Source: a virus. From it: 38,737 bases of DNA. The position numbers and the translations under genes are program-made. The notes under the pieces were generated by a model that saw only the letters and a list, made by a program, of their open reading frames with translations, made no database searches and had not been told where the DNA came from. The stretch lies in the IMG/VR virus record IMGVR_UViG_3300029230_000021, one strand, 5' to 3'. Below, piece by piece: positions 773 to 12,038 of the stretch. The stretch's first letter is position 1; every line of letters starts with the position of its first letter.

Positions 773-878
773 GAAAGTGCCAACAGTCCAATACGTTTTT
801 ACAGCTTTTTCGGAAAAATCTTTCCGTTATGGCTTGGTTTTGTATTACCTTTTTTGTCTCTCAATGTTTACAGTTGGT

Positions 879-907
879 ATCTTACATCAAAAATTCGTGT
901 ATGTCAA
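879..907 (-). promoter_or_regulatory. Sigma-70-like promoter, leftward (TTGACA-17-TAAGAT), candidate early promoter for the cro-like operon
   Basis: The reverse complement of 879-907 reads ttgaca tacacgaatttttgatg taagat. Confidence 0.5.
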
Positions 908-942
908 TCGCATTTACACTAATTTTTGATGTTCAGCGCATT

Positions 943-977
943 AAACAAAAATACAGCTCCGCAATTAGCGGAGCTGT
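943..977 (-). terminator. Rho-independent terminator on the minus strand
   Basis: 10-bp stem acagctccgc/gcggagctgt (953-977) with loop aatta. On the minus strand it is followed by atttttgttt. Confidence 0.65.
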
Positions 978-998
978 ACAAAAAGGAGATATATAAAT

Positions 999-1307
999 AT
1001 GGAAAAAGATTTAACTAAAGAATCCCGCGAAGCCTTGAGGAAGCTTTGGGAAGCCTATTCTCAGCGCAGGAAGGACGGAATGAGCAAGCAGTTAGCCGTT
1101 CGTTTCCTTGCGAAAGACTACGCGGACTATCCCGGTTTCGAGACAATCCGCGCAGAGCTGAAGAGTGCAGGATATCTAAAGGTGTTCATTGTCGATGGCG
1201 ATTTTGACCTTACCGACAAGGCGATCATCTTTTTTGAGAACTACGATAAGGAAAACATAGAGAAATGGATTGACCGAGGAATAAGCGCGCTGTCAGGGCT
1301 TTTATAA
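999..1307 (+). CDS. Hypothetical protein, possibly winged-helix (YjcQ-like) DNA binding
   Basis: Strong RBS aaaggag 9 nt upstream of the ATG. The segment AELKSAGYLKVFIVDGDFDLTDKAIIFFENY resembles wHTH phage proteins. The call rests on weak recognition only. Confidence 0.4.
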   Translation: MEKDLTKESREALRKLWEAYSQRRKDGMSKQLAVRFLAKDYADYPGFETIRAELKSAGYLKVFIVDGDFDLTDKAIIFFENYDKENIEKWIDRGISALSGLL

Positions 1308-1550
1308 TCCGAGCTTTTTCATTCGTTCTTCCGTCATCCTTGCGTATTCCTCGATTTTGAGCCGTATTTCCTTTTCGTCTGTCGTAACAGGGAATACTCG
1401 TGTCGGTCGTATGTCCATGCACTTGATATTTACATCTCCCCCGTCCACGTCAAGTGTGAGGCGTTCAAGTCCTCCCCCGAACATTACCCCGTCGATTACG
1501 AAGAAGCTCTCTGCGCCGGTTGATACGAACATGAATTTTGGTAGTGCCAT
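1302..1550 (-). CDS. Hypothetical 82-aa protein, convergent with and overlapping the 999..1307 gene
   Basis: RBS gaaaggag before ATG 1550. The two stop codons share the hexamer ttataa at 1302-1307. No recognisable domain. Confidence 0.5.
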   Translation of the reverse strand: MALPKFMFVSTGAESFFVIDGVMFGGGLERLTLDVDGGDVNIKCMDIRPTRVFPVTTDEKEIRLKIEEYARMTEERMKKLGL

Positions 1551-1627
1551 TTTTGTTCTCCTTTCAATTTATATTCTGGTATAGCTATGTTTGCATTAAA
1601 ATTTCGCGTGTGTCAAGGAGTCTTGTC

Positions 1628-1957
1628 ATGTTTTATGAAAACCTGCTAAAGCTGTGCAGCTCGCATGGCGTAAAAGTTACGAATGTCGTTACTGAATTAG
1701 GATGCAGTCAAGGAAGTATGTCGCATTGGAAAAGAGGCGGCACGCCCAATGCGGCTACACTAAAAAAATTCGCTGATTATTTCGACGTGTCAACAGATGA
1801 CCTAATCAACGGCGTTGAAGGTGCCAACAGCACCGTTACAGCTTCGGATACGGAAATTTCAGCAGAAAAGCGGGAAATGATTAACTTGATTTTAGCGTTG
1901 CCGGATGACAAAGTAAAAGCTCTTTATCAGATAGCAGTTCAAGCGCTCGCTCTGTGA
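1628..1957 (+). CDS. XRE-family HTH repressor candidate (CI-like, 109 aa)
   Basis: RBS aaggag 8 nt before ATG 1628. HTH VVTELGCSQGSMSHWKRGGTPNAATLKKFADYFDVSTDDLI. Confidence 0.75.
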   Translation: MFYENLLKLCSSHGVKVTNVVTELGCSQGSMSHWKRGGTPNAATLKKFADYFDVSTDDLINGVEGANSTVTASDTEISAEKREMINLILALPDDKVKALYQIAVQALAL

Positions 1958-2142
1958 ACCATTTGAATTGTTCGGCATTCATCTCGCATATCATGTTTAT
2001 TAGTTCTTCTCGCTTCTTCTCCACTTTTTTCTTCTCCTTATATTATTTTCGACAAATTTCACTTGATTTTGGCAAAACAAAGTGTTAACATTTAAGCAGC
2101 GTAACAATTTATTCACATTATATAATGAAAAGGGGTAATGTC

Positions 2143-2682
2143 ATGGTAAAAAGACTGCTAACGTGTCTACTCGCATTTTCTCTTGTTCTCACGCTCTGTG
2201 CCTGTGGCGGCGTAGCCGCGTCAAGCGCGGCGGGGAGCACCAATCCCACCAACAATGCTCCGGCACCTGAACCTGAACCGTCCGCAGCTCCCGCCGCTAC
2301 GGTTTCAGATGAGTGCTCTGCTCTCGGTTACACCGTGAAAATCGTCGCCGCGCATAAAACTTACGGCTCTGACGGTGATTTGCAAGTTGCTGTCGAGGTC
2401 GAGTTTACGAACGATAACACAGACCCCATAGACTTCATGGGAGCTGCGCAGATAACCGTGTTCCAAAATGGTGTGCAGCAGGAAAAGAGCGAAATGTATT
2501 TAGGCGATGGCTACGATTGGGATTCATATTACCGTCAGATTAAAGACGGTGCTACTATTAGTGTTTTCGAAGCGTTTCCACTATCCAGTGAAACAGACCC
2601 GGTCGAGGTCAACGTTGAAATCATCGACTATAATAAATGGGAAACTGCCGCGAGCGCAACTGCCGTTATTGATTTGACTTAA
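2143..2682 (+). CDS. Prophage lipoprotein (Ig-like/DUF4352-like beta domain), superinfection-exclusion candidate
   Basis: Signal peptide plus lipobox MVKRLLTCLLAFSLVLTLCACGG, an Ala/Pro-rich linker and a beta-rich domain. The ATG at 2143 has the better RBS; the ORF track starts at 2125. Confidence 0.7.
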   Translation: MVKRLLTCLLAFSLVLTLCACGGVAASSAAGSTNPTNNAPAPEPEPSAAPAATVSDECSALGYTVKIVAAHKTYGSDGDLQVAVEVEFTNDNTDPIDFMGAAQITVFQNGVQQEKSEMYLGDGYDWDSYYRQIKDGATISVFEAFPLSSETDPVEVNVEIIDYNKWETAASATAVIDLT

Positions 2683-2853
2683 TGCAAGCGCCCCGGCATT
2701 GGCGGCAACCTCTGCCGGGGCTGTAACAGATACCTTGTAAACCGACTTATCTGCTACGCTTTTATAGTAGCAGACCCAGCGAAAAATATCTATACGGCTA
2801 AGTAGTTGAAATAGCTTTATATTTTGTGAAAAATTTTTGAGGAGATGTAAAAA

Positions 2854-3399
2854 GTGTCTGCTATTCAGGAATTGCAGCCGTATTGTGACGCTTTTCAAGG
2901 TCGAATACGTGAAGCAAAGGATAGTAAAGGTTACACACTGCAAAGGCTGATCGACGAATCCGGCGTACCGAAATCGGCGGTAAACAATATCAGCGCCGGG
3001 AAACAGGTCAATCCCTTGCTGTACAACGCCGCCGCGCTGTGCAAGGTGCTTGACCTGTCGCTGGATGATTTGTTCGGGCTTGAGAAGCCCGTTGACAGTC
3101 CGGAGGGGCAGCAACAACGCATTCATGAGCTGGAAATCGACAACACCCGGCTCACCGCCGTTGATGAGCAAAAGGATAAACGGCTCGAAACCGCCCGTAT
3201 TATTGTCGGCGTTCTCGCTGCCGTGTCCACGCTGCTGCTCTTGGCGGTCATAGGTTACATGATTATCGACGCGCACATCCTCAGCGATGGTCTTTTCCGT
3301 TCTACGGGAGTATCCGTGTTCTTCGTTTTCCTTGTGCTACTTGTTATTGCGGCGCTTGCCGCCATCGGCTACGCCCTGCGGTTTTTGTTCAGAAAATAA
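2854..3399 (+). CDS. Membrane-anchored XRE-family HTH regulator (HTH + coiled coil + 2 TM helices)
   Basis: HTH YTLQRLIDESGVPKSAVNNISAGKQVNP. C-terminal hydrophobic helices IIVGVLAAVSTLLLLAVIGYMII and VFFVFLVLLVIAALAAIGYAL. Confidence 0.7.
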   Translation: MSAIQELQPYCDAFQGRIREAKDSKGYTLQRLIDESGVPKSAVNNISAGKQVNPLLYNAAALCKVLDLSLDDLFGLEKPVDSPEGQQQRIHELEIDNTRLTAVDEQKDKRLETARIIVGVLAAVSTLLLLAVIGYMIIDAHILSDGLFRSTGVSVFFVFLVLLVIAALAAIGYALRFLFRK

Positions 3400-3447
3400 A
3401 AATAGCCCCCAGTCGTTAGACCGGGGGCGTTGTTATAGGGTGATGTT

Positions 3448-4584
3448 ATGCAATGCCGAAAATGTAGAGAAGAGATCCCCGACATAAGCAAATACTGTAT
3501 GTTTTGCGGCGCAAAGCAGCAGTCGGAGCCGCGCACGGTAAAGAGCCGGGGAAACGGTATGGGCACGGTCTACAGGCGCGGAAAGACGTGGACGGCAAAG
3601 GTGACAATAGACTACGCGGCCGGGAGTGATGGTGTGTCGCGCCCCGTCTCGCGCACTAAGGGCGGCTTTAAGACAAAGAAAGAAGCGGTGAACTATTTAC
3701 CCGTCCTGAAGCTCGCGCCGCGTGAGAAGCCCAAACAGGCGACGTTCAAGCAAATCTATGAGGCGTGGCAGCCGACGCACCGCGCCGGGAAGTCTACGAT
3801 GGATTGTTACAAGGCAGCATATAAATATTTCGCGCCGGTCTATCGGCTCTATATCTCGGATATAGACATTGACGATCTGCAAGACTGCCTCGACGAATGC
3901 AACAAAGGGCGGCGCACAAAAGAGAACATGAAAGCCCTATGCGGCTTGCTCTATAAATTTGCCATCCCCCGGCACTACGTCACACTTAACATGGGGCAGT
4001 ACCTCACCGTGAGCGGCGACAGCGGCACGAAAAACGCGCTGCCGGATGATGCTATACCAAAGCTTGAGAAGCACGTAGACGGCGTTTTTGGCGCGTCTAT
4101 CGTGCTGTGCCAATGTTACCTTGGCTTTCGTCCTGCCGAGTTTGTAGCGCTCGACGCGGCGAATTACAACAGCAAAGAGCGGGCATTTATCGGCGGCGCT
4201 AAAACGGAGGCCGGGACGGATCGCACTGTCACCGTCTCCCCGAAGATTCAGAAATACATTGACAAGGCCATGCAGGGCAAAACCAGCGGTGCGGTGTTCA
4301 CCGATGAGGACGGGAAGCCGTTCACGACCTCACGATATCGGGACCTGTTTTATTCAGTGCTTGAGAAGTGCGGCATAGATAATCCCATCGTCGAGCGCGA
4401 CGGGAAGAAATTTTACACCTATACTCCGCACAGCTGCCGTCACACATTCGCAACGCTTATGAAACGTGTCGACGGAGCGGATCGTGACAAGCTCGCCCTC
4501 ATCGGCCACACAAGTGATGAAATGCTGCGGCATTATCAGGACGTAAACTACGCGGATTTGAGGAAGATAACAGATGCACTATGA
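3448..4584 (+). CDS. int: Tyrosine recombinase/integrase with N-terminal zinc ribbon
   Basis: N-terminus CRKC...CMFCG. Catalytic-region motifs GFRPAE, HSCRHTFATLM and LIGHTSDEMLRHY. Sits adjacent to attP. Confidence 0.9.
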   Translation: MQCRKCREEIPDISKYCMFCGAKQQSEPRTVKSRGNGMGTVYRRGKTWTAKVTIDYAAGSDGVSRPVSRTKGGFKTKKEAVNYLPVLKLAPREKPKQATFKQIYEAWQPTHRAGKSTMDCYKAAYKYFAPVYRLYISDIDIDDLQDCLDECNKGRRTKENMKALCGLLYKFAIPRHYVTLNMGQYLTVSGDSGTKNALPDDAIPKLEKHVDGVFGASIVLCQCYLGFRPAEFVALDAANYNSKERAFIGGAKTEAGTDRTVTVSPKIQKYIDKAMQGKTSGAVFTDEDGKPFTTSRYRDLFYSVLEKCGIDNPIVERDGKKFYTYTPHSCRHTFATLMKRVDGADRDKLALIGHTSDEMLRHYQDVNYADLRKITDAL

Positions 4585-4585
4585 T

Positions 4586-4671
4586 GTTGATAACGGCGTT
4601 GATAGTTTTTCTTGAATAGGCTCTTGAAGAGCCATATTTTGATGCCTTTCTATTATCAACCTACTATCAAC
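4586..4671. repeat. attP left arm: GTTGATA/TATCAAC heptamer sites and the GGCTCTT-g-AAGAGCC palindrome (candidate integrase/accessory binding sites)
   Basis: gttgata at 4586 and 4598. tatcaac at 4654 and 4665. Palindrome at 4618-4632. Confidence 0.5.
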
Positions 4672-4723
4672 AAAAGCCCGCAAACCGTTGAAAATAGGTG
4701 CATTTTTCGTGAATGGCATTCAA

Positions 4724-4757
4724 GAGGTCAGCGGTTCGATCCCGCTTATCTCCACCA
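4724..4757 (+). other. attP core: copy of the variable-loop/T-arm/acceptor/CCA 3' end of a tRNA-Ala-type (G3:U70) gene
   Basis: gaggtc-agcgg-ttcgatc-ccgct-tatctcc-acca. The T-arm folds, and the acceptor 3' strand has U at position 70. No matching 5' half lies upstream. Confidence 0.7.
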
Positions 4758-4762
4758 AAAAT

Positions 4763-4806
4763 GACAGGATTTACGAAGTTTTTCGCGAATCCTGTCACTT
4801 TTTTAT
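4763..4806 (+). terminator. Rho-independent terminator that would replace the host tRNA terminator after integration
   Basis: Stem gacaggatt/aatcctgtc followed by acttttttatt. Confidence 0.7.
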
Positions 4807-4855
4807 TCCGTTCCGTTCTTATCCGTTCCGTTCTATTATCAACGTATTATTAACA
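4807..4855. repeat. attP right arm: direct repeat tccgttccgttct x2 plus a third-arm copy of tctattatcaac
   Basis: 13-mer at 4807-4819 and 4822-4834. ttctattatcaac at 4831-4843 repeats 4649-4660. Confidence 0.55.
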
Positions 4856-4867
4856 CAAATTCGGCAA

Positions 4868-4890
4868 AGGCCGGGGATTGTCCCCGGCCT
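4868..4890 (-). terminator. Hairpin terminator ending the accessory island operon
   Basis: aggccgggga-ttg-tccccggcct lies 6 nt after the stop of the 4896..5444 gene. Confidence 0.5.
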
Positions 4891-4895
4891 CCGGC

Positions 4896-5444
4896 TTAGT
4901 CTACGACGCACTCATAATATCTTATGAGCTTATCGTCTGCTGCGTCCTTGTCGCAGAGGAACGCTTCGGCAAGATCGGCGTAGAACTCTGTGTTGTTGAC
5001 GTTGAATTTCTTTGCAACCTTGAAATAGTCAGAGTATAGCATATTCATTGCAACATAGAACTCTATCGGATCGCAGTCGTATTTCTTCTGACTAAGAAGA
5101 TTTGACGTCTGATCGTAGCTCCAATGTGCGCCCCTGCTGCCGTCCTCATTTTCAAGGTCGTGCATCCATTCATCCGCCATCTCGCGGCTCATGCCGTTGT
5201 ACATACTGCCGCCGCCATAACCGCGCTCATAGTCCCCGCCATAGCTCGCCGGATCACCCATACGCGGCGCATCGTAGTCAAAGCCTATTCTGCGGCGCTC
5301 ATAATAGTCATCCCGGTAGTTGTCGCGGTATTCATTGCGCGGCGCGTAGCGGCCATTGTCGTAATGCTCGCGCCCCCGGCGGTCACGGTATTTGTCCTGC
5401 GGCTGATAGTCGCGGATTCTCATTATACGGTCGGTTCTGCTCAT
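4896..5444 (-). CDS. Orphan protein F: Arg/Asp/Tyr-rich low-complexity N-terminus plus globular C-terminal domain
   Basis: YRDRRGREHYDNGRYAPRNEYRDNYRDDYYERRR, then ADEWMHDLENEDGSRGAHWSYDQT... The ATG overlaps the stop of the upstream gene (ATGA), and a GGAGGTG RBS lies inside that gene. Confidence 0.6.
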   Translation of the reverse strand: MSRTDRIMRIRDYQPQDKYRDRRGREHYDNGRYAPRNEYRDNYRDDYYERRRIGFDYDAPRMGDPASYGGDYERGYGGGSMYNGMSREMADEWMHDLENEDGSRGAHWSYDQTSNLLSQKKYDCDPIEFYVAMNMLYSDYFKVAKKFNVNNTEFYADLAEAFLCDKDAADDKLIRYYECVVD

Positions 5445-5833
5445 GCTGTCGCACCTCCTGTTGCCGCGTTAACTGCGGTAAGATTGTTGCTCGGAGAGCA
5501 GCATGGGTTTCCGATCATGCGGAACGTCGCGCCCGTTGAGTTCGTGACAACGATGGTGCTGTACTTCGTCCGCGTCCGCACTCCGCACGCTGTCACCTGT
5601 GCGCAGCAGCGGTTTGTCAGCGGAAATTGAGTTGTCCCCGTGCCGATGGTGAACACGACCGGCGCGTTGATCGTCGCCGTCGCGGGTATGGTTTGTGCCA
5701 ACACGATACAGTATTTCCCGCCGTTGGTATAGCTGCCGTCCGGGAGGTTGACAACTACGTTGCCATCGGCAAACGTTATCGCTTGGCTGAGTATCAGCTT
5801 TGGGCAAAGCTGACATACGGGTTTACATGACAT
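5441..5833 (-). CDS. Orphan protein E: Cys-rich beta-rich 130-aa protein
   Basis: MSCKPVCQLCPK..., RCCAQVTACG, NPCCSPS: 10 Cys overall. RBS aaaggag. Confidence 0.6.
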   Translation of the reverse strand: MSCKPVCQLCPKLILSQAITFADGNVVVNLPDGSYTNGGKYCIVLAQTIPATATINAPVVFTIGTGTTQFPLTNRCCAQVTACGVRTRTKYSTIVVTNSTGATFRMIGNPCCSPSNNLTAVNAATGGATA

Positions 5834-5883
5834 AGTAATCTCCTTTCAAGGGCGGGTTATCCCCGCCCCGATATCAGTTTTGC

Positions 5884-6639
5884 TTAATAGTTGCCGCAGC
5901 CGCCGCAGCCGCCGCAACCGTTCGCGCCATACGAATAGGGGTTCTGCACCTGATACGCCGGTATGGGTGCAGGGCGCAGAGTGTTGACAAGGTAGTTATT
6001 CTGCGCCGCCTGAGACGCCGCAAGCTTCAGTGTGGAGTTCTCCGCCTCAAGATCGCGCAGTCTGCTGTTAGTCAGGAAGTCAAGGACAGCTCTGGTTCCC
6101 GCGTTCTGACTGTCTATGATGTCGCGAGCTGCTACCTGCACGGTGTTACGGGTGTCGCAAGCCTGTGTAGCCATATCGTAGCGCACCTGCGCAATAGCCG
6201 CGCGGTTCTCACAGCAACATTCCTGTGCCTGCATCTGCATCGCGTTGAGCTGCTGCATGAGTGCCGCCTGCTGGTTACACCTTGCAAGCTCCGCCGCAGA
6301 AAAGCCGCCTGTGACCGCCTGAGTGACCCCTGCAAAGCCGTTGAGCATACCGGTATTCATCGCGTAGAAGCCGTCACAGATGCCGTTGTTTACACCGTCG
6401 AGTTTGCGCTCAAGGTTCGCAAAATCCGACGTGAGAACATACCCGGCCATCGCCGCGCCTGTACCAGTCGAACCGCCGTCACCGGCTCCATTGCCAGCGC
6501 CATAGCCGCCGCGCCCCCAGCCGAAGATCAGGGCAAAGATGATGATAGCCCACCATCCGTCACCGCCGAACATTCCGCCGCGATTAGAATTACCGTCGCC
6601 CTGCCCGGCGAGGAATCCGCTTATAAAATCGTCTGCCAT
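5884..6639 (-). CDS. Orphan protein D: Gly-rich N-terminus, one TM helix, coiled-coil region with a CCC triplet, C-terminal CGGCGGCGNY
   Basis: GGDGWWAIIIFALIFGWGRGGYG (TM helix), QAQECCCENRAAIAQVRYDMA, tail ANGCGGCGGCGNY. Confidence 0.6.
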   Translation of the reverse strand: MADDFISGFLAGQGDGNSNRGGMFGGDGWWAIIIFALIFGWGRGGYGAGNGAGDGGSTGTGAAMAGYVLTSDFANLERKLDGVNNGICDGFYAMNTGMLNGFAGVTQAVTGGFSAAELARCNQQAALMQQLNAMQMQAQECCCENRAAIAQVRYDMATQACDTRNTVQVAARDIIDSQNAGTRAVLDFLTNSRLRDLEAENSTLKLAASQAAQNNYLVNTLRPAPIPAYQVQNPYSYGANGCGGCGGCGNY

Positions 6640-6647
6640 AAAAAATC

Positions 6648-6733
6648 TCCTATCAGTTTATTTACACACGGGTCGCGCGCCCCGTCTGCATTTGTCGGGG
6701 CAGTTTTTATCAAGACCTGCAAAACTGATAGGA
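6648..6733 (-). promoter_or_regulatory. Long-range RNA stem that can sequester the RBS of protein D
   Basis: tcctatcagttt (6648-6659) is the exact reverse complement of aaactgatagga (6722-6733). On the mRNA the arm transcribed from 6648-6659, the one proximal to the start codon, contains the AGGAG Shine-Dalgarno. An inner hairpin gccccg/cggggc is also present. Confidence 0.45.
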
Positions 6734-6740
6734 TTTTTAT

Positions 6741-7052
6741 TTATTTGAGGCCAAGCTCCTTGGCTAGTTCATCTACTGTAGTGCCACGCTCGGCAGCCAT
6801 GTTTTGCGCCATCTGTGCAAGGCTGTTAGCGTCCTTACCCTGCAGCATCGTCACCGCCTGTGCCATCTTCGGATTCTGTGACGCCATCTGCTGCAACGCT
6901 GGTAAGAAGTTCCCCGACTTATAGGCGCTTATCAGTGTCATTACCATTTCCGCATCTGTGGCCATCTGCCCCATCTGCTTCATGGTGCCTATTGCCTCTG
7001 TCGCCATCCCCTTTATATTTCTTGCCATTTGCGGCGGGAAAAGGTTATTCAT
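6741..7052 (-). CDS. Orphan protein C: Met/Gln/Ala-rich helical 103-aa protein
   Basis: MKQMGQMATDAEMVMTL...QQMASQNPKMAQAVTMLQGKDANSLAQMAQNMAAERG. The start overlaps the end of the upstream gene. Confidence 0.55.
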   Translation of the reverse strand: MNNLFPPQMARNIKGMATEAIGTMKQMGQMATDAEMVMTLISAYKSGNFLPALQQMASQNPKMAQAVTMLQGKDANSLAQMAQNMAAERGTTVDELAKELGLK

Positions 7053-7419
7053 CGTCGTCTGCCCTCCGTTTCTTTTTAGGTGTCAGCTCCGCCCGAAGAG
7101 CGTCAAGGTCGGCTTTTGTCGCATACTCCACCGGTGCAGACTGTTCCGGTATATACCGCTGGAACTCGAAGAAGTCAGATGATCCAGTCTGCTGGTTAAA
7201 GCGCTTGAGATAGATCATGCCGTGCCCCAAGTCTGGCATTACAACACCAAGAGAGAAGTAGTCCGTGCTCGTCGCTACGGCCTCTTCTCGGCTCGTCACG
7301 GGCTTACAGACGTATCCCGGCGCAGCTTGCTGCACCGTCTGTATAGGCCGCTGATAGCCGCCGTAGAACTGCTGCTGTGGCTGTTGCGGGGGCTGTTGGT
7401 AATACTGTGGGTAATCCAT
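7045..7419 (-). CDS. Orphan protein B: Gln/Pro/Tyr-rich N-terminus plus small globular domain
   Basis: MDYPQYYQQPPQQPQQQFYGGYQRP..., then SREEAVATSTDYFSLGVVMPDLGHGMIYLKRFNQQTG. The ATG at 7419 has the RBS agaaagga. The ATG at 7452 lies inside the terminator T-tract. Confidence 0.55.
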   Translation of the reverse strand: MDYPQYYQQPPQQPQQQFYGGYQRPIQTVQQAAPGYVCKPVTSREEAVATSTDYFSLGVVMPDLGHGMIYLKRFNQQTGSSDFFEFQRYIPEQSAPVEYATKADLDALRAELTPKKKRRADDDE

Positions 7420-7452
7420 TACGTCACGTCCTTTCTGCTGATATTCTCGCAT

Positions 7453-7485
7453 AAAAAAAGAGGGCTAACCCATCGGTTAGCCCTC
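7453..7485 (-). terminator. Strong rho-independent terminator between the regulator gene and proteins B-F
   Basis: 11-bp stem gagggctaacc/ggttagccctc, loop catc, then 7 T on the minus strand (aaaaaaa at 7453-7459 on the plus strand). Confidence 0.8.
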
Positions 7486-7498
7486 ATCAACACATTAT

Positions 7499-7774
7499 TT
7501 AGCCATCAATCGCGGCAGCTATTTTATTTTTTATGCTCCGTATACGGCGCTCGACTTTCTCAGTGCCGTATAGCTCGGTTTCCGTTTGAAGAGCAAAGGA
7601 AATTTGCAAGATGCTCATTCCCCGCGCCCTCATGCGGAATATGGTCAACTCCTCGTCGGTAAAGCCGCAGTCGCGTTCAAACTGCTCCTTTAGTGCTCTC
7701 GGAAATTGCAGCTTGTTCTTTTCCCCCGGCGTTATCAGACTGGTTCTTATTTCTGCTGTTGTCGTTAGCCTCAC
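7499..7774 (-). CDS. Small sigma-70 region-4-like / LuxR-like HTH regulator (C-terminal reading frame)
   Basis: FTDEELTIFRMRARGMSILQISFALQ...VERRIRSIKNKI resembles region-4 HTH phage regulators. The only start is a GTG at 7774 with no well-spaced RBS. Confidence 0.55.
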   Translation of the reverse strand: MRLTTTAEIRTSLITPGEKNKLQFPRALKEQFERDCGFTDEELTIFRMRARGMSILQISFALQTETELYGTEKVERRIRSIKNKIAAAIDG

Positions 7775-7868
7775 TTCCTATGTACGCATTATATAGCATG
7801 TCTACAAGGTTTGCTGATCGCTGATTCAGCCCATTCAAGCGGCAGAAATCTTTCACGGATTCTTTCAT
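7677..7868 (-). CDS. 63-aa ORF with a good start that overlaps the regulator frame by 98 nt (possible N-terminal part of the same gene)
   Basis: RBS acggagg before ATG 7868. N-terminus MKESVKDFCRLNGLNQRSANLVDMLYNAYIG. The distal third is low complexity (NDNSRNKNQSDNAGGKEQ). Confidence 0.4.
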   Translation of the reverse strand: MKESVKDFCRLNGLNQRSANLVDMLYNAYIGSEANDNSRNKNQSDNAGGKEQAAISESTKGAV

Positions 7869-7960
7869 CTGTCCTCCGTTTTTGTCGGTTTACAAGGATT
7901 TTTCTGTTTGCGCCCACGTAGGCACGCAGGCCTTTGACTGCACGCGGCGCGTGTTAATAA

Positions 7961-8227
7961 TTATTCGTTTTTGCCCAGCTGTTTAACGATCTGGTTAGCG
8001 CCGGTTGCAGCGAGGCCGGACACGATACCGACGGCGACAGCGGTTATGTAATCCGTCGCTGGGAAGTCCGGCATGATCTTCATGCCGACGACGCCCAGCG
8101 CGCCGCCGCAGATCCCGCAGATAACCGGAATCCACTTGTTGTCAAGGCCAGTAACCTTAATACCTTCGCCGATGAGATACGCTATGACGGTGATTGCCGC
8201 CACGCTCGCTATGCCTATCATTTCCAT
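7961..8227 (-). CDS. Holin (88 aa, multiple TM helices)
   Basis: IGIASVAAITVIAYLIG, WIPVICGICGGALGVVG, ITAVAVGIVSGLAATGANQIVKQLGK. Located in the lysis cassette. Confidence 0.8.
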   Translation of the reverse strand: MEMIGIASVAAITVIAYLIGEGIKVTGLDNKWIPVICGICGGALGVVGMKIMPDFPATDYITAVAVGIVSGLAATGANQIVKQLGKNE

Positions 8228-8242
8228 GTTTGTGCTCCTTTC

Positions 8243-8518
8243 TTATTTCAGAAACATGCCCAGAACATAACCTGCTACGCCTGAGATGATGAGTCCTACG
8301 ACTGTGTCCCAATACTTAGCGGGCTTGTCCGTGAGCTTTTTTACGTTGCTCTTGATCTCCCCAACGTCGGTCTTGATGTGCTCCTGCTCATTAGCCATCA
8401 CCGACATGGTAGTCGCGAGCTTGTCCAGATTGTCCTGTCGGACTTCGAGATCGTCAATGCGGTGCGTGTTGCTCTTACACCGCTGCTCAATCTCTGCGAG
8501 TTTAACTGCTTCGTCCAT
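8243..8518 (-). CDS. XhlA-like lysis-associated membrane protein (coiled coil + C-terminal TM helix)
   Basis: Coiled-coil N-terminus, C-terminal WDTVVGLIISGVAGYVLGMFLK. Lies between the endolysin and holin, as in PBSX-type cassettes. Confidence 0.7.
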   Translation of the reverse strand: MDEAVKLAEIEQRCKSNTHRIDDLEVRQDNLDKLATTMSVMANEQEHIKTDVGEIKSNVKKLTDKPAKYWDTVVGLIISGVAGYVLGMFLK

Positions 8519-8596
8519 GTGCCTTTACCTCATGCTTAAAGTTAGGGTTCTATGTGCTTATAGTTACTTTCCCTGCCGGTCATACCAGGATTTTCT

Positions 8597-9304
8597 TCAT
8601 TCCCGCTCACCTCCCACTATGCTCTTGTACGTGGCCGCGCCGCAGATGCCGTCAGCTTCAAGGCCGTGCTCCGACTGATAAGCCATGAGCATATTGCGCG
8701 TGCGCGTTCCGAACTCACCGTCGATCCATTTAGGATCATAGCCGAGATACTTCAAGGCCGCCTGAAGCATGGCAACAACCACGCCGGTTTGTCCGTCCTC
8801 CAGCATGGGCAGCTCGACAGTGACATAGCGTGTCGGCTTCTTTGTGGCCGGCACCGTGTCCGGTTCTGCCCCGGTATAGCGCAGTACGCAGTCCCACGGA
8901 TAGTTATAGTACCCGCGTGTATATATCTCGCGCCCGGTCTGGTCGCCGGTCCGGCCTCCGGTCGTAGTGCCATATTCGTTGATGCTTGCCTGCACGAGCT
9001 GTCCGCCGCCGATATACAGGGCGGTGTGGTGGACGTGGTTTAAGAGCACATCCCCACGCTCAAGCCCCGCGCCGGTCGTGAGATCGACGCTGCCCGTCAC
9101 GTCCTCAAAGCCGCAGCGCAGCATGTCCCCGCGCATGTTGCCGGTGTAAGTGCAGCTGAGGGGAACCCCTGCTTTTCTGAAAGCGGAGATCACCAGACTG
9201 CTGCAATCGTAGTCAGGCCCCCAGCGGTTGGCCTGATCGTAGCCGTGGCTGTCGTCCGCCGCTATCTCCAGCGCGCGAGTCACGGCATTGTCAATAATTC
9301 CCAT
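8597..9304 (-). CDS. Endolysin: NlpC/P60-type cysteine peptidase plus C-terminal peptidoglycan-binding domain
   Basis: GYDQANRWGPDYDCSSLV...HHTALYIGG (Cys/His peptidase motifs). C-terminus VVAMLQAALKYLGYDPKWIDGEFGTRTRNMLMAYQSEHGLEADGICG (PG_binding_1-like). Confidence 0.85.
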   Translation of the reverse strand: MGIIDNAVTRALEIAADDSHGYDQANRWGPDYDCSSLVISAFRKAGVPLSCTYTGNMRGDMLRCGFEDVTGSVDLTTGAGLERGDVLLNHVHHTALYIGGGQLVQASINEYGTTTGGRTGDQTGREIYTRGYYNYPWDCVLRYTGAEPDTVPATKKPTRYVTVELPMLEDGQTGVVVAMLQAALKYLGYDPKWIDGEFGTRTRNMLMAYQSEHGLEADGICGAATYKSIVGGERE

Positions 9305-9431
9305 GGTTCCCTCCTCATGTCACTGTCGTAAATCTTAAGAGCAGCCACCCTGTCGGGTCTACACTCTCCCGGGCATCTTCCGTCAGCAAGCCGCTGTCGG
9401 TCTTATCGTCGTCCATTACTCAGTTACCTCC

Positions 9432-9599
9432 TCACTCCGTATACTCCACGCCGTACCGGTCGAACAGAGCCTTGACCCGAGCGTCCTTGAGTATCTTCTG
9501 CTGCTGGCCGTGATTCAGCGCGTCATAAACCGTTTGCAGTGCGGTCTTGGTGTCGGCGGCTACTTCCTCCGCAGCCATCGTCCATTTGCCTTTACTCAT
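9432..9599 (-). CDS. Small hypothetical protein (55 aa)
   Basis: ATG 9599, MSKGKWTMAAEEVAADTKTALQTVYDALNHGQQQKILKDARVKALFDRYGVEYTE. Below the ORF-track size cut-off. Confidence 0.4.
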   Translation of the reverse strand: MSKGKWTMAAEEVAADTKTALQTVYDALNHGQQQKILKDARVKALFDRYGVEYTE

Positions 9600-9720
9600 T
9601 TACTGTCACCCCCAGCACGTTCAAGGCGTTTTGCATGTCCTGTTTTTCTTCGTCCGTGCCGCCCTGCTTTATCTCCGCTATGCGGTTAAGGCAGCGTTCC
9701 GCTCTTTCTTCAATGGTCAT
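9592..9720 (-). CDS. Small hypothetical protein (42 aa)
   Basis: ATG 9720 overlaps the upstream stop (ATGA). MTIEERAERCLNRIAEIKQGGTDEEKQDMQNALNVLGVTVNE. Confidence 0.35.
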   Translation of the reverse strand: MTIEERAERCLNRIAEIKQGGTDEEKQDMQNALNVLGVTVNE

Positions 9721-10016
9721 GTTGTTACCTCCAACGCGTTTTCGATGGCGGTCAATGCCGCTTCATACTGCGCATTCTGCGCAGTTACATACGCCGCCTG
9801 CGCCGCATACGCCTCGCCCAGATCCTTCCACGGTGCCATCATCTCGCCCCGGAACACCTCGCCGTCCTCGCGCGTCCATGTCCCGCCCTCGGGGACGAAG
9901 CGGTAGCTCTCTATGTAGCGGGCGCATTTTCCGTTAAATGCGTCAGTCTCTATAGCTGTTCGCCCCTCAGCCGGGGAGACATAGCATTTATAATCACCGT
10001 CTATGTAGATCGTCAT
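9717..10016 (-). CDS. Hypothetical protein downstream of the tail fibres (99 aa)
   Basis: Compact ORF with RBS gaggagg. No recognisable domain. Confidence 0.5.
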   Translation of the reverse strand: MTIYIDGDYKCYVSPAEGRTAIETDAFNGKCARYIESYRFVPEGGTWTREDGEVFRGEMMAPWKDLGEAYAAQAAYVTAQNAQYEAALTAIENALEVTT

Positions 10017-10029
10017 TTGTCATACCTCC

Positions 10030-11076
10030 TCATTCAAGCCAGACTCTTGTTATATCGCACGCCATTGATATACTGCCATCGAATGATTTTGAAACATACG
10101 CCATTACGTAACCCTTAGATATATTGCTTATAGACAATGTCAATGTTTGATTATTTTTAATTGTGGTCGTCGCGGTTTTGGCTGTAAGGGACGGGTTATC
10201 TGAATAAAAATCAGAGGGTATTTCTGTGTTTACTCCGATGCCCCATTTGTCACCACCCGACATGGTTGCAAACGTAATATGGAGCGTCGTATAATTAGCC
10301 ATATTTATGCTATTTTTTGTATAGATGAACCATGTGCGCTTTATTGTTCCTTGCGTTTGAGTGATTGCATAGTTGAAACTAATTCTATCACTGCCAACAC
10401 TGAACACTATATTTGAAGAAAAATGTCCATCAGCTTCCCAACCACCCGTTAGTGCGGTAACATCGCCGCCATTCGAGCCGTCAAACAGCACCAGTTCAAA
10501 CATCAGCGTTACGGTCTCGGCCTGTCCCTCGGCGTTGATTGATACCGTTTTGCTCGTGCTCTTGCTGCCGCTGACCGCCGTGACCGTCCACGTCCCGGCG
10601 GAGGGGATAACGAACAGCGCCTTGCCGCTCGTGTCTTTCGCCGTCAGCGTCAGTGTGCCGTTCGTGCAGGTGCAGACGCTCCCCGAGGGGTATGTCACGT
10701 CGATCACAGCATAGACGGCGGCGACGGTGACGATCCCGGTCGTGAATACACCCTCTCCGACGGCGGTCTGGGCGGATGCCGAGGGAATTACAGTCTTCGC
10801 CGCTTGAACTGGCAGCTGCTTCGTTGCGGACTTAGTCCCGGCGGCGACTACGCCCGCGGCCTGTGTGGCCGAGGCGGTGATTTTTCCGGCAGCGTCGACC
10901 GTTATCGCGGGCGTAGCCTGCGTGACGTCGGAGAGAGTGCCGGTCTTGATCTGCTTATCCCCGGCGTAGAACTTTTTTTCGCTGCGGACATCTGCGGCCT
11001 GCGCATTGGCAAGGGCAAGCTTTGAGTTGGTCAGTCCCCCACCGCCCATGACGCCATTGCCGAATATCTCGCTCAT
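10030..11076 (-). CDS. Tail fibre / receptor-binding protein with an AT-rich C-terminal jelly-roll-like domain
   Basis: Position after the other fibre genes. Ala/Thr/Gly/Val-rich shaft, then the domain ISFNYAITQTQGTIKRTWFIYTKNSINMANYTTLHITF. Confidence 0.6.
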   Translation of the reverse strand: MSEIFGNGVMGGGGLTNSKLALANAQAADVRSEKKFYAGDKQIKTGTLSDVTQATPAITVDAAGKITASATQAAGVVAAGTKSATKQLPVQAAKTVIPSASAQTAVGEGVFTTGIVTVAAVYAVIDVTYPSGSVCTCTNGTLTLTAKDTSGKALFVIPSAGTWTVTAVSGSKSTSKTVSINAEGQAETVTLMFELVLFDGSNGGDVTALTGGWEADGHFSSNIVFSVGSDRISFNYAITQTQGTIKRTWFIYTKNSINMANYTTLHITFATMSGGDKWGIGVNTEIPSDFYSDNPSLTAKTATTTIKNNQTLTLSISNISKGYVMAYVSKSFDGSISMACDITRVWLE

Positions 11077-11927
11077 GCTGTCACCTCCGTGATGCTCACC
11101 TGCACGGTGATTGCCGCAGTGGGTTTATCTCCGACTGCATAGGCGGTGATAGTTCCGGCGTTGTTGCCAAATACAAGGCCGTAGCCGCCCTCCATTGCGC
11201 CGTTCATAACGGTAGCATCCGGATTAATGTCAATGCGGCTGTTTGCTGTGGTGCCGTCGATCTCAACCGTCTGTGAGTACGGCGATGCGCTGCCCGTCCA
11301 CGATGCGACCGGCAGCGTGACTGTTGCCGTTTTTATCGCGGGAGCTGCGCCGACATCGGTAGCAGCAAGCGAAACATTGCCCGAAGCGTCAGGCAGCTTA
11401 TCATTAACAGTCGCAACAGAACCGGAGCCATTCAGACCGTTGTAAACGCTGAATGTGGTATACTGTCCGTTGTCAAAGGTTATCTTGTATACGTCGGTTG
11501 TGCCTGCTGCGTGAGTGCCGGATTGCAGAGCGATCGACGCTATGCCGTTGCCGTTCGTCACGGTAAAGGTGGAGGTCGTATTATCTGTCAGTGTGACCGT
11601 GTACGTGTCCACAAGGCCGCTTGTGCCGGTCTTGGCAATAGATTTTATGCTTGCGCCGTTCGTCACCGTGAATGTGGTACTTGTGTTATCGGAAAACTGT
11701 ATTTTATACGTGTCCACAAGGCCGCTGGTATCGGTCTTAGTCACGCTTGTAATAGCACGCCCGTCCGTGCCCTTGTCGCCTTTTGCGCCCGTTGCGCCGC
11801 GCACTGAGGTCGTTGTGACCGTGGTTTCATCGGCCATGGTAAAGGTCAGTGTGTAATCATCGTTCAGCGTGATGCTGCTTATGCCGCCGTGCCCGTCGAG
11901 CGCTGTTGCGAGGTCGCGTACAAGCAC
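11073..11927 (-). CDS. Tail fibre protein with a collagen-like triplet run and ~31-35-aa tandem domain repeats (reading frame is open up to 12035)
   Basis: GATGAKGDKGTDG. Repeats of the type TSGLVDTYKIQFSDNTSTTFTVTNG. The GTG at 11927 is the first canonical start, but protein-like sequence continues upstream. Confidence 0.7.
   Translation of the reverse strand: MLVRDLATALDGHGGISSITLNDDYTLTFTMADETTVTTTSVRGATGAKGDKGTDGRAITSVTKTDTSGLVDTYKIQFSDNTSTTFTVTNGASIKSIAKTGTSGLVDTYTVTLTDNTTSTFTVTNGNGIASIALQSGTHAAGTTDVYKITFDNGQYTTFSVYNGLNGSGSVATVNDKLPDASGNVSLAATDVGAAPAIKTATVTLPVASWTGSASPYSQTVEIDGTTANSRIDINPDATVMNGAMEGGYGLVFGNNAGTITAYAVGDKPTAAITVQVSITEVTA
11427..11885 (-). repeat. Four tandem protein-domain repeats inside the fibre gene
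   Basis: ISSITLNDDYTLTFTMADETTVT / ITSVTKTDTSGLVDTYKIQFSDNTSTTFTVTNG / IKSIAKTGTSGLVDTYTVTLTDNTTSTFTVTNG / IASIALQSGTHAAGTTDVYKITFDNGQYTTFSVYNG. Confidence 0.7.
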
Positions 11928-12038
11928 TTGCCCAGTCAGTGACTTCGCCTGTCCTGCCTGTTCCAGTACAAACAGATCTGCTGTTGTTACTGACGAAGCT
12001 CTCGGAAGCTCAGAAACAGTTTTGTCCGCGATAGGTCA

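Follow-up and report, generated by a model that had tools for sequence, protein, structure and literature searches.

Our results show that five minus-strand genes, B to F (4896–7452), in a 38,737-nt stretch of viral DNA (IMG/VR record IMGVR_UViG_3300029230_000021; hereafter the window) form one copy of an accessory cassette that is modular, moves horizontally, and is carried by tailed phages of gut anaerobes. The cassette was found in hundreds of phages, with five to eight genes in stable synteny. Every match lay on a phage-sized contig or in a prophage, and none was seen in chromosomal islands. These data overturn the description of the genes as orphans in an earlier note on this DNA, since relatives of protein D alone make up no fewer than 1,574 clusters when grouped at 50% identity.

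Composition and distribution of the cassette

The cassette comprises, in order, a small HTH regulator, an optional papain-like Cys-His-Asp protein (without a copy in the window), B, a C-type protein, D, an E-type Cys-rich beta protein, and a last slot filled by F or by two helical proteins. B (phrog_21718) and D (phrog_16490) form the constant pair, found together in 81 of 81 loci examined. The alternative proteins of a slot are mutually unalignable; their combinations were counted over 80 species-level genome loci. Identical B–F blocks stand beside three holin types, two endolysin types, and differing recombinases, in agreement with the expectation that the block travels together.

The cassette usually has the lysis genes on one side and the integrase on the other: a lysis-type gene lies upstream in 64 of 80 IMG/VR loci, and in 43 of the 54 loci with enough sequence the downstream flank encodes a recombinase on the opposite strand. 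This confirms the slot between the lysis genes and attP/integrase that had been proposed for the window. Here, a Hol44 holin, an XhlA-like gene, and an endolysin lie upstream of the cassette, and a tRNA/tmRNA-like 3' end followed by an integrase (3448–4584, plus strand) lies downstream. The 3' end gave weak matches to tmRNA models (E = 0.024 and 0.19, both under the gathering score), and ARAGORN found no complete tRNA; this element, lying between cassette and integrase, is probably the attP core.

Other settings were also observed. In the L066 group, the cassette sits inside the head-gene cluster, with a minor head protein on one side and the scaffold on the other, and contains an XhlA-like gene. 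In the crAss-like phage cr116_1 it adjoins a scaffold-like gene near the lysis genes, in Butyrivibrio phage Ceridwen it is also near lysis genes, and in C. perfringens phage CPD1 and Bacteroides phage C3_41T2LP it is placed among early and replication genes. Three phages carry HNH homing endonucleases, whose usual targets are conserved phage genes, within the cassette or next to it.

The hosts are mostly from spore-forming clostridial lineages, those of the window clade being monoderm Clostridia. Butyrivibrio, the host of Ceridwen, is non-spore-forming. A reduced cassette of D and DUF7841 was found in Bacteroides and crAss-like phages, where partner homology is limited to these two proteins, and D without partners was found in Methanomassiliicoccales viruses, which are predicted archaeal viruses. 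Ceridwen has been observed in lytic growth only (PMC7372960), and CPD1 is grouped with it as a phage seen only in lytic growth.

Operon layout and proteins

B–F are a real, translationally coupled five-gene operon, running in one direction downstream of a strong intrinsic terminator. The minus-strand ORF set places the genes as given in Table 1, with B as the longer ORF 7045–7452. Thousands of homologues, together with calls by independent gene callers, establish that these are real genes. The starts of C and F overlap the preceding stops (ATGAATAA and ATGA, respectively). Most of what the earlier note had read from the window was confirmed: the five minus-strand genes, both overlaps, the 11-bp-stem terminator, the compositions of B, C, and F, and, in D, the Gly-rich N terminus, the hydrophobic segment, CCC, and the CGGCGGCGNY tail. 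The Cys count of E was corrected from 10 to 9.

Table 1. Features of the cassette and its borders in the window
Feature	Position	Strand	Description
Conserved non-coding motif	7879..7896	-	CTTGTAAACCGACAAAAA; ribosome-binding site of A1 lies about 12 nt downstream
A1	7677..7868	-	63-aa ORF; conserved N terminus MKESVKDFCRLNG...
A2	7499..7774	-	Small HTH protein, about 73–91 aa; overlaps A1 in the +1 frame
Intrinsic terminator	7460..7485	-	11-bp stem, 7 GC pairs, T7 run
B	7045..7419	-	124 aa; phrog_21718; alternative upstream ATG at 7452
C	6741..7052	-	103 aa, no Cys; start overlaps B stop
C–D spacer	6640..6740	-	Structured, conserved
D	5884..6639	-	251 aa; hallmark protein; phrog_16490 (2.4e-38)
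D–E hairpin	5846..5871	-	GC-rich, without T-run; -18.4 kcal/mol, z = -3.2 (RNAfold)
E	5441..5833	-	130 aa, 9 Cys, beta-rich; N-terminal C-x3-C-x2-C cluster, two CC pairs
F	4896..5444	-	182 aa; Arg/Asp/Tyr-rich head of ~75 aa plus DUF7841; start overlaps E stop
Hairpin 3' of F stop	4865..4893	-	13-bp stem; -25 kcal/mol, z = -3.9 (RNAfold)
tRNA/tmRNA-like 3' end	4715..4757	+	...GGTTCGATCCCGCTTATCTCCACCA; read from sequence

B most likely starts at ATG 7419, judging from its Shine-Dalgarno sequence, the gene calls, and homologues of 124–125 aa. Its Q/P/Y-rich head is disordered, a small alpha/beta domain follows, and a helix forms the C terminus; iterative HMM searches recovered the family in 81/81 loci and in 73/80 genome loci. 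Its AF2 model (pLDDT 75; >88 at residues 40–90) gave no Foldseek match in the PDB and matched only uncharacterised phage proteins in BFVD. C is rich in Ala (16%), Met (13%), and Gln (10%) and is a slot protein: CPD1_037 belongs to its family, and variant-2 cassettes carry a 70-aa Q-rich protein (phrog_22984) instead.

D is the only protein of the operon with a hydrophobic segment. From the N terminus, an acidic tail leads into a hydrophobic anchor flanked by Gly (WWAIIIFALIFGW) and a Gly-rich linker; a helix-rich domain with Cys residues, CCC among them, an RPxPxPAYxVxNP motif, and a Cys-rich tail follow. CCC is present in 152 of 153 unique members. The single hydrophobic core reaches a 12-residue KD of 2.4; the segment is short, with a 19-residue KD of 1.49, under the classical 1.6. 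The N-tail carries, on average, 0.7 K+R vs 3.0 D+E in 132 representatives of the family, a charge bias suggesting, at the level of sequence, that the large domain is cytoplasmic.

E has homologues in 2,409 clusters, with invariant Cys at C3, C7, C10, C42, C77, and C83 and the C-x3-C-x2-C cluster in 26 of 36 unique members; CPD1_040 is homologous to it (hhalign 97.9%). E likewise occupies a slot; its place in other cassettes is taken by a 140-aa beta protein bearing a PRGCC motif (E140; phrog_20016), which has CC in 98 of 99 cases. The AF2 model of E is a beta-sandwich (pLDDT 63) with no match in the PDB. F matches Pfam PF25223 (DUF7841; 3.6e-27), and the D–DUF7841 pairing recurs in C3_41T2LP (5.3e-16). 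No signal peptide or lipobox was found in B, C, E, or F.

The earlier reading, in which none of B–F could be assigned to a named family, requires amendment: F is a DUF7841 protein and D a phrog_16490 member, and both are families without known function. The absence of characterised relatives was upheld for B–F by searches of Pfam, PHROGs, NCBIfam, PADLOC, PDB sequence profiles, and AlphaFold models with Foldseek. The best structural match was a Pa193 baseplate protein (E = 0.16, TM 0.40), obtained with a low-confidence model. No nuclease, NTPase, or other effector domain was recognised in the cassette.

Regulator region and RNA signals

A single regulator had been placed at 7499–7868. This interval of 370 nt is no multiple of 3 and holds two overlapping ORFs in different frames, A1 and A2, an arrangement also present in diverged loci. 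A1 is the first half of the supposed single regulator; metagenome contigs carry it as a called gene of 63 aa, and it matched no family in Pfam or PHROGs. The start of A2 is uncertain, with GTG 7774 as a candidate. By sequence resemblance, A2 is similar to sigma-70 region 4 and GerE-LuxR HTH proteins and, like HTH-only regulators of these kinds, has little beyond the helix-turn-helix. Unlike them, A2 of the window gave no direct Pfam match and shares its DNA with the conserved A1. Counterparts in other cassettes do exceed Pfam thresholds: a homologue in L012 meets the GerE cut-off, and positional counterparts match Sigma70_r4 in L170 (38.5 bits) and, below threshold, in L077, L066, and L062. 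hhalign related A2 to the variant-2 HTH protein with 90% probability. Upstream of A1, the motif CTTGTAAACCGACAAAAA occurs once within the window, and its core TTGTAAACCGACA keeps the same position in L001–L012 and L022, where A1 identity is only 37–50%. The motif may serve as an operator or as part of a promoter.

The terminator ahead of B folds with -22.3 kcal/mol (z = -5.95; RNAfold), and its end lies 8 nt upstream of the first ATG in B. It is kept in three distant phages: the order HTH–terminator–TTTTTTTATG is also found in L066, and Ceridwen has an annotated terminator at the equivalent position. The proposed regulator–terminator–operon arrangement thus recurs in very different phages. A search for a sigma-70-type promoter for B found none.

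The C–D spacer (-33.4 kcal/mol, z = -4.97; RNAfold) is conserved in about 6 lineages, with both sides changed in 7 of 22 pairs, and had no Rfam match at E <= 1. The 3' arm of its outer stem abuts the ribosome-binding site of D; hairpin 1 has the invariant loop TCTTGAyAAAAA, and the GC-rich hairpin 2 is followed by the motif GATGTrAATAAA. The D–E hairpin may be an attenuator or a processing or stability element, and the transcription unit probably ends at the hairpin after F.

Proposed role and alternatives

We infer, with a probability of about 0.35, that the cassette forms a D-anchored, Cys/metal-stabilised assembly at the host membrane that serves the productive cycle. D would insert in the cytoplasmic membrane via its hydrophobic segment, leaving the K/R-poor N-tail outside and the helix-rich domain, with its CCC, and the Cys tail in the cytoplasm. 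There it would recruit the partners that lack signal peptides, namely E, which contributes Cys clusters, and B, C, and F, which have low-complexity regions rich in Q/P/Y, M/Q, and R/D/Y, respectively. The resulting membrane-tethered assembly would be held by metal binding or, once lysis has occurred, by disulfides. Expression of B–F would come from read-through of the pre-B terminator by the late/lysis transcript, with a regulated start in the C–D spacer as a possible second route and A2 as the dedicated cassette regulator. The role might be to organise assembly or egress, for example, and would not involve host conversion.

A phage rather than a host function is suggested by the strictly phage-borne distribution, the carriage by Ceridwen and CPD1, the L066 head cluster, the Bacteroides and crAss-like carriers, and the HNH insertions. 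The topology and assembly are proposed from the single hydrophobic core, the N-tail charge, the signal-less partners, and the conserved Cys motifs, and the regulation from the conserved terminator and structured C–D spacer. Weighing against the productive-cycle reading, the lysis–integrase site is the classical moron slot, and prophage expression fits equally; unrelated slot replacements are typical of arms-race functions (exclusion, defence, receptor binding); a sigma-70-type promoter for B is missing; and the hydrophobic segment is short, so D could be monotopic or N-in/C-out.

In its slot, self-containment, flanking terminators, own small regulator, and mobility between unrelated backbones, the cassette resembles morons, such as gtrABC of Salmonella and Shigella phages or the toxin genes that streptococcal prophages carry behind the lysin. 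It differs from them in being kept in crAss-like phages and in phages seen only in lytic growth, in lying also inside head or replication modules, and in having five to eight genes in fixed order with no recognisable enzyme or toxin. The moron slot, which adjoins integrase/attP in about 80% of loci, the HTH regulator with terminators, and the varied combinations of non-homologous slot proteins would suit a superinfection-exclusion or abortive-defence module. D would then sit in the membrane of the lysogen or early-infected cell, with cytoplasmic sensor or effector partners, and keep competing phages from entering or replicating, with specificity set by the interchangeable slots; a membrane anchor with cytosolic partners would also match a common design of exclusion systems such as lambda RexAB and the Sie proteins. 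We regard such a module as unlikely, given the lack of PADLOC matches and effector domains, the confinement to phage genomes, the carriage by crAss-like phages and phages observed lytic only, the stable synteny, and a strong terminator ahead with no visible promoter. Unlikely, too, are virion-associated accessory or ejection proteins, in which D, through a segment that inserts into membranes, would act in piloting or ejection, with E-type proteins as Cys-cross-linked beta-sandwich decoration or fibre subunits, and the optional peptidase as a processing enzyme. The head-cluster position in the L066 group, the scaffold-like neighbour in cr116_1, the phage-borne spread across host phyla, and the HNH insertions agree with this, as does the absence of signal peptides, which would fit cytoplasmic assembly and exit by lysis as with virions. 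Others have labelled D homologues 'outer capsid protein/viral fiber' or 'spike protein/glycoprotein', labels that are unverified. The usual site is, however, after the lysis cassette, behind a terminator and outside the structural operon; PHROGs gave no structural annotation, the models matched no capsid, tail, or fibre protein in structure, and no virion proteomics was found for any carrier phage.

The frequent position directly after holin and endolysin, the lysis genes near the Ceridwen and cr116_1 cassettes, and the XhlA-like gene in the L066 group could point to a lysis accessory, in which D would finish envelope disruption or time lysis. Rz (of Rz/Rz1) and the T4 class III holin T are N-terminal-anchor membrane proteins, and D would be comparable to such an i-spanin or holin in its anchor, its long helical Cys-bearing domain, here an ectodomain, and its Pro-rich C terminus. 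We find this improbable: D matched no holin or spanin family in Pfam or PHROGs, no lipoprotein partner was found, the hosts are mostly monoderm, and the charge bias suggests a cytoplasmic large domain. Free swapping of holin and endolysin types beside an identical cassette argues against a specific partnership, CPD1 and C3_41T2LP keep the cassette among early or replication genes, and four or more cytoplasmic partners would be left without explanation. Very unlikely, finally, is the hypothesis of the earlier note, lysogenic-conversion cargo that builds or remodels a cross-linked envelope or spore-surface structure, or a set of secreted Cys-rich effectors. It drew on the Cys/Gln/Tyr/Gly-rich compositions, and the GerE-like, HTH-only regulator and the mostly spore-forming hosts are consistent with it. 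Spore-coat proteins likewise lack signal peptides. Ena and ExsY-type proteins are cross-linked through Cys motifs, in Ena subunits of the N-terminal Cys cluster/CC kind, which the small, beta-rich E-type proteins may recall. Nonetheless, no Pfam match to DUF3992/Ena, BclA_C, CotY/ExsY, or other coat families was found, and Foldseek and PDB profile searches were negative. The phages seen only in lytic growth, non-sporulating Butyrivibrio, and Bacteroides/crAss-like and archaeal-virus carriers argue against a general spore-coat or exosporium role and against prophage-specific cargo. Without signal peptides, an exported structure or secreted effector set would require lysis for release.

For the membrane-tethered assembly of the productive cycle, p16.7 and p1 of the small phage phi29, membrane-anchored organisers of phage DNA replication, offer a possible parallel in architecture only. 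No homology of D to them was detected and no DNA-binding domain recognised, and D is Cys-rich and twice as long; it would resemble them as a bitopic protein with an N-terminal anchor and a helical, oligomerising cytoplasmic domain, and the CPD1 and C3_41T2LP cassettes share with them a site among replication genes.

Organization of the cassette genes

We located seven ORFs of the cassette on the minus strand of the window. B-F are present as the earlier note had described them within 4896-7868, together with both start-stop overlaps that it listed (ATGAATAA for B/C and ATGA for E/F), and these genes form a real operon. The 11-bp-stem terminator was likewise found, with seven GC pairs and a T7 run. 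The reported protein compositions stood for every protein except E, which carries 9 Cys and not 10. B most likely starts at ATG 7419, which would give a protein of 124 aa, because a Shine-Dalgarno sequence is present there, independent gene calls agree, and the homologues are 124-125 aa long. The single regulator claimed at 7499-7868 spans 370 nt and is therefore impossible as one ORF; it corresponds to A1 and A2. The surroundings matched their description, with a Hol44-family holin, an XhlA-like gene, and an NlpC/P60-type endolysin upstream and an integrase downstream. The latter is a zinc-ribbon tyrosine integrase on the opposite strand, which accompanies a tRNA/tmRNA-like 3' end.

Coordinates of cassette genes, cis elements, and neighboring features in the window and in other loci
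Locus	Feature	Coordinates	Strand	Remark
Window	F	4896-5444	-	ORF
Window	E	5441-5833	-	ORF
Window	D	5884-6639	-	ORF
Window	C	6741-7052	-	ORF
Window	B	7045-7452	-	ORF; likelier start ATG 7419
Window	A1	7677-7868	-	ORF, 63 aa
Window	A2	7499-7774	-	ORF, HTH part, +1 frame vs A1
Window	Pre-B terminator	7485-7460		
Window	C-D spacer	6640-6740	-	~100 nt
Window	Motif CTTGTAAACCGACAAAAA	7879-7896	-	
Window	Holin genes	7961-8518		Hol44 holin and XhlA-like gene
Window	Putative attP core	4715-4757	+	
Window	Integrase	3448-4584	+	
Window	tRNA-Gln	22171-22244	-	Anticodon TTG
L002	C-D leader	5896-6003		
L005	C-D leader	5895-6003		
L077	C-D leader	5874-5994		
L135	C-D leader	7803-7916		
L200	C-D leader	5758-5866		
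L005	A1/A2 two-frame layout	4780-5290		
L012	A1/A2 two-frame layout	880-1310		
L022	A1/A2 two-frame layout	4160-4590		
L063	P128	4678-5070		
L165 (Ceridwen)	P128	5665-6042		
L165 (Ceridwen)	HNH endonuclease	8109-8903		PHROG match
L166 (CPD1)	CPD1_038	6044-6667		207 aa, unannotated
L168 (C3_41T2LP)	Gene annotated I-HmuI	2766-3386		
L169 (Caudoviricetes sp. vir215)	Region of lone D homologue	3652-6259		
L066	Head-gene cluster with the cassette	17-12264		
L066	Terminator	5159-5185		

B-F belong to a modular cassette with a B and D core

At least 596 D loci were confirmed in IMG/VR, and 80 of these were kept for cassette analysis. Iterative HMM searches detected B and D in all 81 loci (the 80 loci plus the window). 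The window represents variant 1, in which A1/A2 and the terminator are followed by B, C, D, E, and F. Variant 2, found in 65 of the 80 loci, has the order HTH gene, 128-aa triad protein (P128), B, 70-aa Q-rich protein (C70), D, 140-aa beta protein with a PRGCC motif (E140), 129-184-aa helical protein with an RDSMGRYSR-type stretch (G129), and 115-aa protein, also helical (H115). The variant-2 families are all PHROGs of unknown function. We rejected the pairs E/E140, C/C70, and F/G129-H115 as divergent homologues, the hhalign probabilities being below 7%. Across 80 species-level genome loci the slot alternatives are mixed, giving combinations such as B-C-D-E140 and P128-B-C-D-E-F.

Whether B-F travel together had been proposed as a check, and they do: near-identical blocks recur beside three holin types, two endolysin types, and either tyrosine or serine recombinases, indicating that the block is inherited as a unit, independently of its neighbors. 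Our data thus identify B-F as a member of a widespread, modular, and mobile phage cassette with a B and D core.

The optional P128 protein (phrog_3754, 128 aa) was found in L063 and 53 other loci. All 21 sequences compared share D20-C21, H101, and D112, which are arranged as in papain-like or NlpC/P60-type enzymes; the family gave no match against Pfam and PDB sequences. A search for a P128-type papain-like gene elsewhere in the window found none.

The phages L217-L226 are nearly identical to the window and have the same E protein, yet they carry three holin modules upstream of A1, namely Hol44 with an XhlA-like gene, Phage_holin_4_1, or a 135-aa gene with Phage_holin_Dp1, and two endolysin types; the lysis genes are exchanged rapidly as modules beside an unchanged cassette. 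One relative (L222) has an additional 142-aa gene between D and E. In two others (L225 and L226), a 320-aa zinc-ribbon ORF after F is followed by host genes (TctB/TctC transporter), a stretch that is probably the prophage-host junction.

Family size and distribution

The term "orphan island" used in the earlier note does not describe these genes. D gave a full-length profile match to PHROG 16490 (phrog_16490; residues 16-249, 2.4e-38), F carries Pfam DUF7841 (PF25223; residues 79-178, 3.6e-27, 95.3 bits against a gathering cut-off of 25.2), and relatives are numerous. Both are families without known function; phrog_16490 is also the record annotation of the D homologue of a Methanomassiliicoccales virus. 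A 90%-identity collection returned at least 7,992 matches to D among 8,000 scored candidates, 2,409 to E, and 367 to B, all named "hypothetical" and mostly on contigs of ~40 kb. Searched exhaustively with HMMER, 1.84 billion representatives yielded 1,574 D clusters (50% identity) at E ≤ 0.001; all members are 160-330 aa long, and no fusion to another domain was found among these clusters.

The genome matches fall in Oscillospiraceae, Lachnospiraceae, Ruminococcaceae, Christensenellales, and Erysipelotrichaceae, with a few in bins labeled Bacteroidota, for which mis-binning is possible. Bacteroides phage C3_41T2LP and many crAss-like phages carry D homologues as well (hhalign probability 99.5%), which have in common CCC, AASQxAQ, RPxPxPAYxVxNP, a Cys tail, and a Gly/Trp-rich hydrophobic N-terminal segment. 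C3_41T2LP has a DUF7841 gene (5.3e-16) three genes after D; for the Bacteroides and crAss-like neighbors we detected no homology to B or E, and those other than DUF7841 are positional analogues only. In viruses assigned to Methanomassiliicoccales, D occurs without partner genes and with its CCC motif doubled. One such predicted archaeal virus (L169, host given as Methanomassiliicoccales) has a lone D homologue with two CCC motifs, directly after a DGR-type reverse transcriptase and before an integrase.

The carriers of D include Clostridia phages, Bacteroides phages (crAss-like ones among them), and predicted gut archaeal viruses. A common conserved unit of five to eight genes, every part of which is "hypothetical", "DUF", or "unknown PHROG", amounts to sizeable gut viral dark matter; its function, once found, would annotate thousands of genes together and might reveal a new membrane-associated phage step or a new exclusion principle. 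Experiments are feasible in three cultured carriers: Butyrivibrio phage Ceridwen, the CPD1-like Clostridium perfringens phages, and C3_41T2LP.

Genomic location of the cassette

A recognizable lysis-type gene lies in the upstream flank of 64 of the 80 IMG/VR loci, which is a lower bound, and of the 54 loci whose downstream sequence extends for 3.5 kb or more, 43 have a recombinase on the opposite strand directly after the cassette. The slot between lysis genes and attP recognized in the window therefore generalizes beyond it.

Other positions were also observed. In the L066 group, which shares an HTH-terminator-TTTTTTTATG junction with the window, the cassette separates the gene for an SPP1-gp7-like minor head protein from those for the scaffold and the major head protein. 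L066 has an unusual late-operon organization: the gene order is TerL, portal, minor head protein, cassette, scaffold, major head protein; a strong terminator precedes the scaffold and capsid genes, and the head-tail adaptor is followed by a Hol44-type holin. Ceridwen, which has no integrase, has been seen only in lytic growth and is considered virulent by its authors (PMC7372960). Its complete variant-2 cassette follows the endolysin and is split by an HNH endonuclease, which separates E140 from the 129-aa gene. In CPD1 and relatives, the cassette genes (B, C, the 207-aa CPD1_038, D, E, and one that is H115-like) lie among early/replication genes. CPD1_038, inserted between C and D, appears HNH-like as judged by sequence alone, and in C3_41T2LP the gene annotated I-HmuI lies directly upstream of D. 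Endonuclease-type genes thus split or adjoin the cassette in three unrelated phages.

Putative regulatory genes and cis elements

The +1 offset of A2 relative to A1 is kept in loci whose A1 is only 37-50% identical, and the same two-frame layout was found at L005, L012, and L022. Sequence conservation leaves the A1 frame and continues in that of A2 at ...TPGxKxKLQFP; in some diverged loci, A2 starts with an ATG of its own. The conserved offset and the separate ATG argue against a sequencing error and for a two-gene arrangement, or possibly a programmed frameshift. A1 and A2 would be either overlapping genes that are coupled in translation, or the parts of a ~120-aa fusion made by a programmed +1 frameshift.

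The window A2 had no Pfam match at E ≤ 0.1. Its homologue in L012 scored as GerE (23.8 bits; cut-off 23.5), and its positional counterpart in L170, to which BLASTP gives no alignment, as Sigma70_r4 (38.5 bits; cut-off 24.1). As relatives of A2 score as one or the other of these HTH families, A2 is plausibly a dedicated activator of the cassette.

RNAfold predicted a stable hairpin in each spacer of the window cassette: the pre-B terminator (-22.3 kcal/mol, z = -5.95), C-D (z = -4.97), D-E (z = -3.2), and after F (z = -3.9). No sigma-70-type promoter for B or D was found on the window coding strand; B-F are therefore probably expressed through read-through or an unrecognized promoter.

About six lineages share the conserved C-D spacer, and compensatory changes occur in all three of its helices. 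The 3' arm of its outer stem ends at the D ribosome-binding site (Shine-Dalgarno); hairpin 1 has a covarying 4-bp stem and an invariant TCTTGAyAAAAA loop, and the 3' part consists of a covarying GC hairpin followed by GATGTrAATAAA. Double changes were found at 7 of the 22 consensus pairs, and the leader matched no Rfam family. Variant-2 cassettes have a short palindromic hairpin and GATAAAT at the same position. The leader may be a new cis-regulatory RNA; it could also be a promoter/operator of an unusual type. A DNA motif kept in diverged loci, CTTGTAAACCGACAAAAA, lies ~12 nt upstream of the A1 ribosome-binding site and is similar to the C-D spacer loop CTTGAyAAAAA. These two motifs (TTGTAAACCGACA and TCTTGAyAAAAA) may be binding sites for one regulator.

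Features of the encoded proteins

D has a single hydrophobic core, WWAIIIFALIFGW, with Gly-rich runs on either side. The Kyte-Doolittle mean is 2.4 over 12 residues and only 1.49 over 19, indicating a short anchor. In 132 family representatives, the N-tail (~30 residues) averages 0.7 K+R against 3.0 D+E and the C-flank is approximately neutral; by the positive-inside rule, this charge bias favors an N-out, C-in topology. CCC is present in 152 of 153 unique D sequences. The remainder of D is low in Pro and Gly.

In E, residues C3, C7, and C10 (C-x3-C-x2-C) are invariant, as are C42, C77, and C83. AF2 modeled E as a beta-sandwich, with modest confidence (pLDDT 63). Its model of B (pLDDT 75) starts with a disordered head of ~30 residues, which is followed by a small alpha/beta domain predicted with confidence and by a helix at the C-terminus. 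Foldseek against the PDB returned nothing at E ≤ 0.001 for either model; against BFVD, the B model matched only uncharacterized sipho-, podo-, and myovirus proteins, apart from one weak match labeled "membrane fusogenic activity" (E = 0.005), which we discounted as a helix match. No signal peptide or lipobox was found in B, C, E, or F.

Comparison with characterized families

Searches of the window and variant-2 proteins against Pfam, PHROGs, NCBIfam, and PADLOC returned only DUF7841 and PHROGs of unknown function. Profiles of E, B, D, E140, and the papain-like protein found nothing below E = 0.2 among PDB sequences, and PADLOC-DB 2.0 gave zero families at E ≤ 1 for seven proteins. Neither the cassette nor the function of any of its members was found described in the literature, and searches on DUF7841, the PHROG ids, and the virion proteomics of carrier phages gave nothing useful; public records all read "hypothetical protein".

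DUF3992 (Ena) was absent from the Pfam matches of E and E140 at E ≤ 1, and no Ena entry appeared in the top 50 of the Foldseek search of the E model against the PDB, a weak test for the Ena jellyroll fold at a model pLDDT of 63. In Ena, conserved Cys of an N-terminal connector cross-link neighboring subunits; E has a conserved N-terminal C-x3-C-x2-C cluster, which would be a different motif from that of Ena. As for the moron type of unit, the cassette has hairpins at both ends and its position differs between backbones; no coding-strand sigma-70-type promoter was found.

These results reveal a cassette without detectable relationship to any characterized family. Because every test of membership in a characterized family failed or gave no decision, we rate the cassette as lying outside the known kinds of system; it may prove to serve in exclusion, in lysis, or as a virion accessory and to have diverged very far.

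Proposed role and alternatives

We propose that D would act as a membrane anchor with its Cys-rich helical domain on the cytoplasmic side and might recruit partners that lack signal peptides and are rich in Cys or in low-complexity sequence, forming an assembly tethered to the membrane. A role in the phage's own productive cycle rather than in host conversion is our leading, though tentative, reading (probability roughly 0.35), because the cassette is confined to phage genomes, persists in phages known only from lytic growth and in crAss-like phages, lies within head or replication modules of some phages, and attracts homing endonucleases. Equally tentatively, the cassette could be an undescribed cross-phylum phage system in which D, with its membrane anchor and CCC motif, nucleates a Cys- or metal-cross-linked structure from interchangeable subunits, a dedicated sigma-r4-like regulator and the conserved structured leader before D control the cassette, and the whole serves the phage cycle or competition between phages through a step without a model-phage counterpart.

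The moron slot, the cassette's own regulator, and the swapping of slots would suit an exclusion or defense module, yet no effector domain is present and lytic phages carry the cassette, which makes this somewhat unlikely. We consider a virion or ejection accessory unlikely. A lysis accessory is quite improbable: holins are swapped freely beside the cassette, and D, B, C, E, and F matched no holin family. D resembles a spanin component in having an anchor and a helical domain, yet the o-spanin lipoprotein partner is absent and the hosts of the window clade are monoderm (Oscillospiraceae and other Clostridia); A1 and A2 also lack a lipobox, and no spanin family matched. The spore-surface or envelope module put forward in the earlier note is very improbable. 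Spore surfaces cannot be the general function, because carriers include Butyrivibrio and Bacteroides phages and archaeal viruses and there is no coat-family signal: spore coat and exosporium families (BclA_C, CotY/ExsY, and similar) gave no Pfam or NCBIfam match. A likeness of E140 to the BclA C-terminal domain was unsupported by Pfam or PDB sequence search.

Additional features of the window

The putative attP core resembles a tRNA or tmRNA 3' end, the matches to the tmRNA model being weak, and the zinc-ribbon of the integrase is N-terminal. The tRNA-Gln gene lies within the phage structural region.
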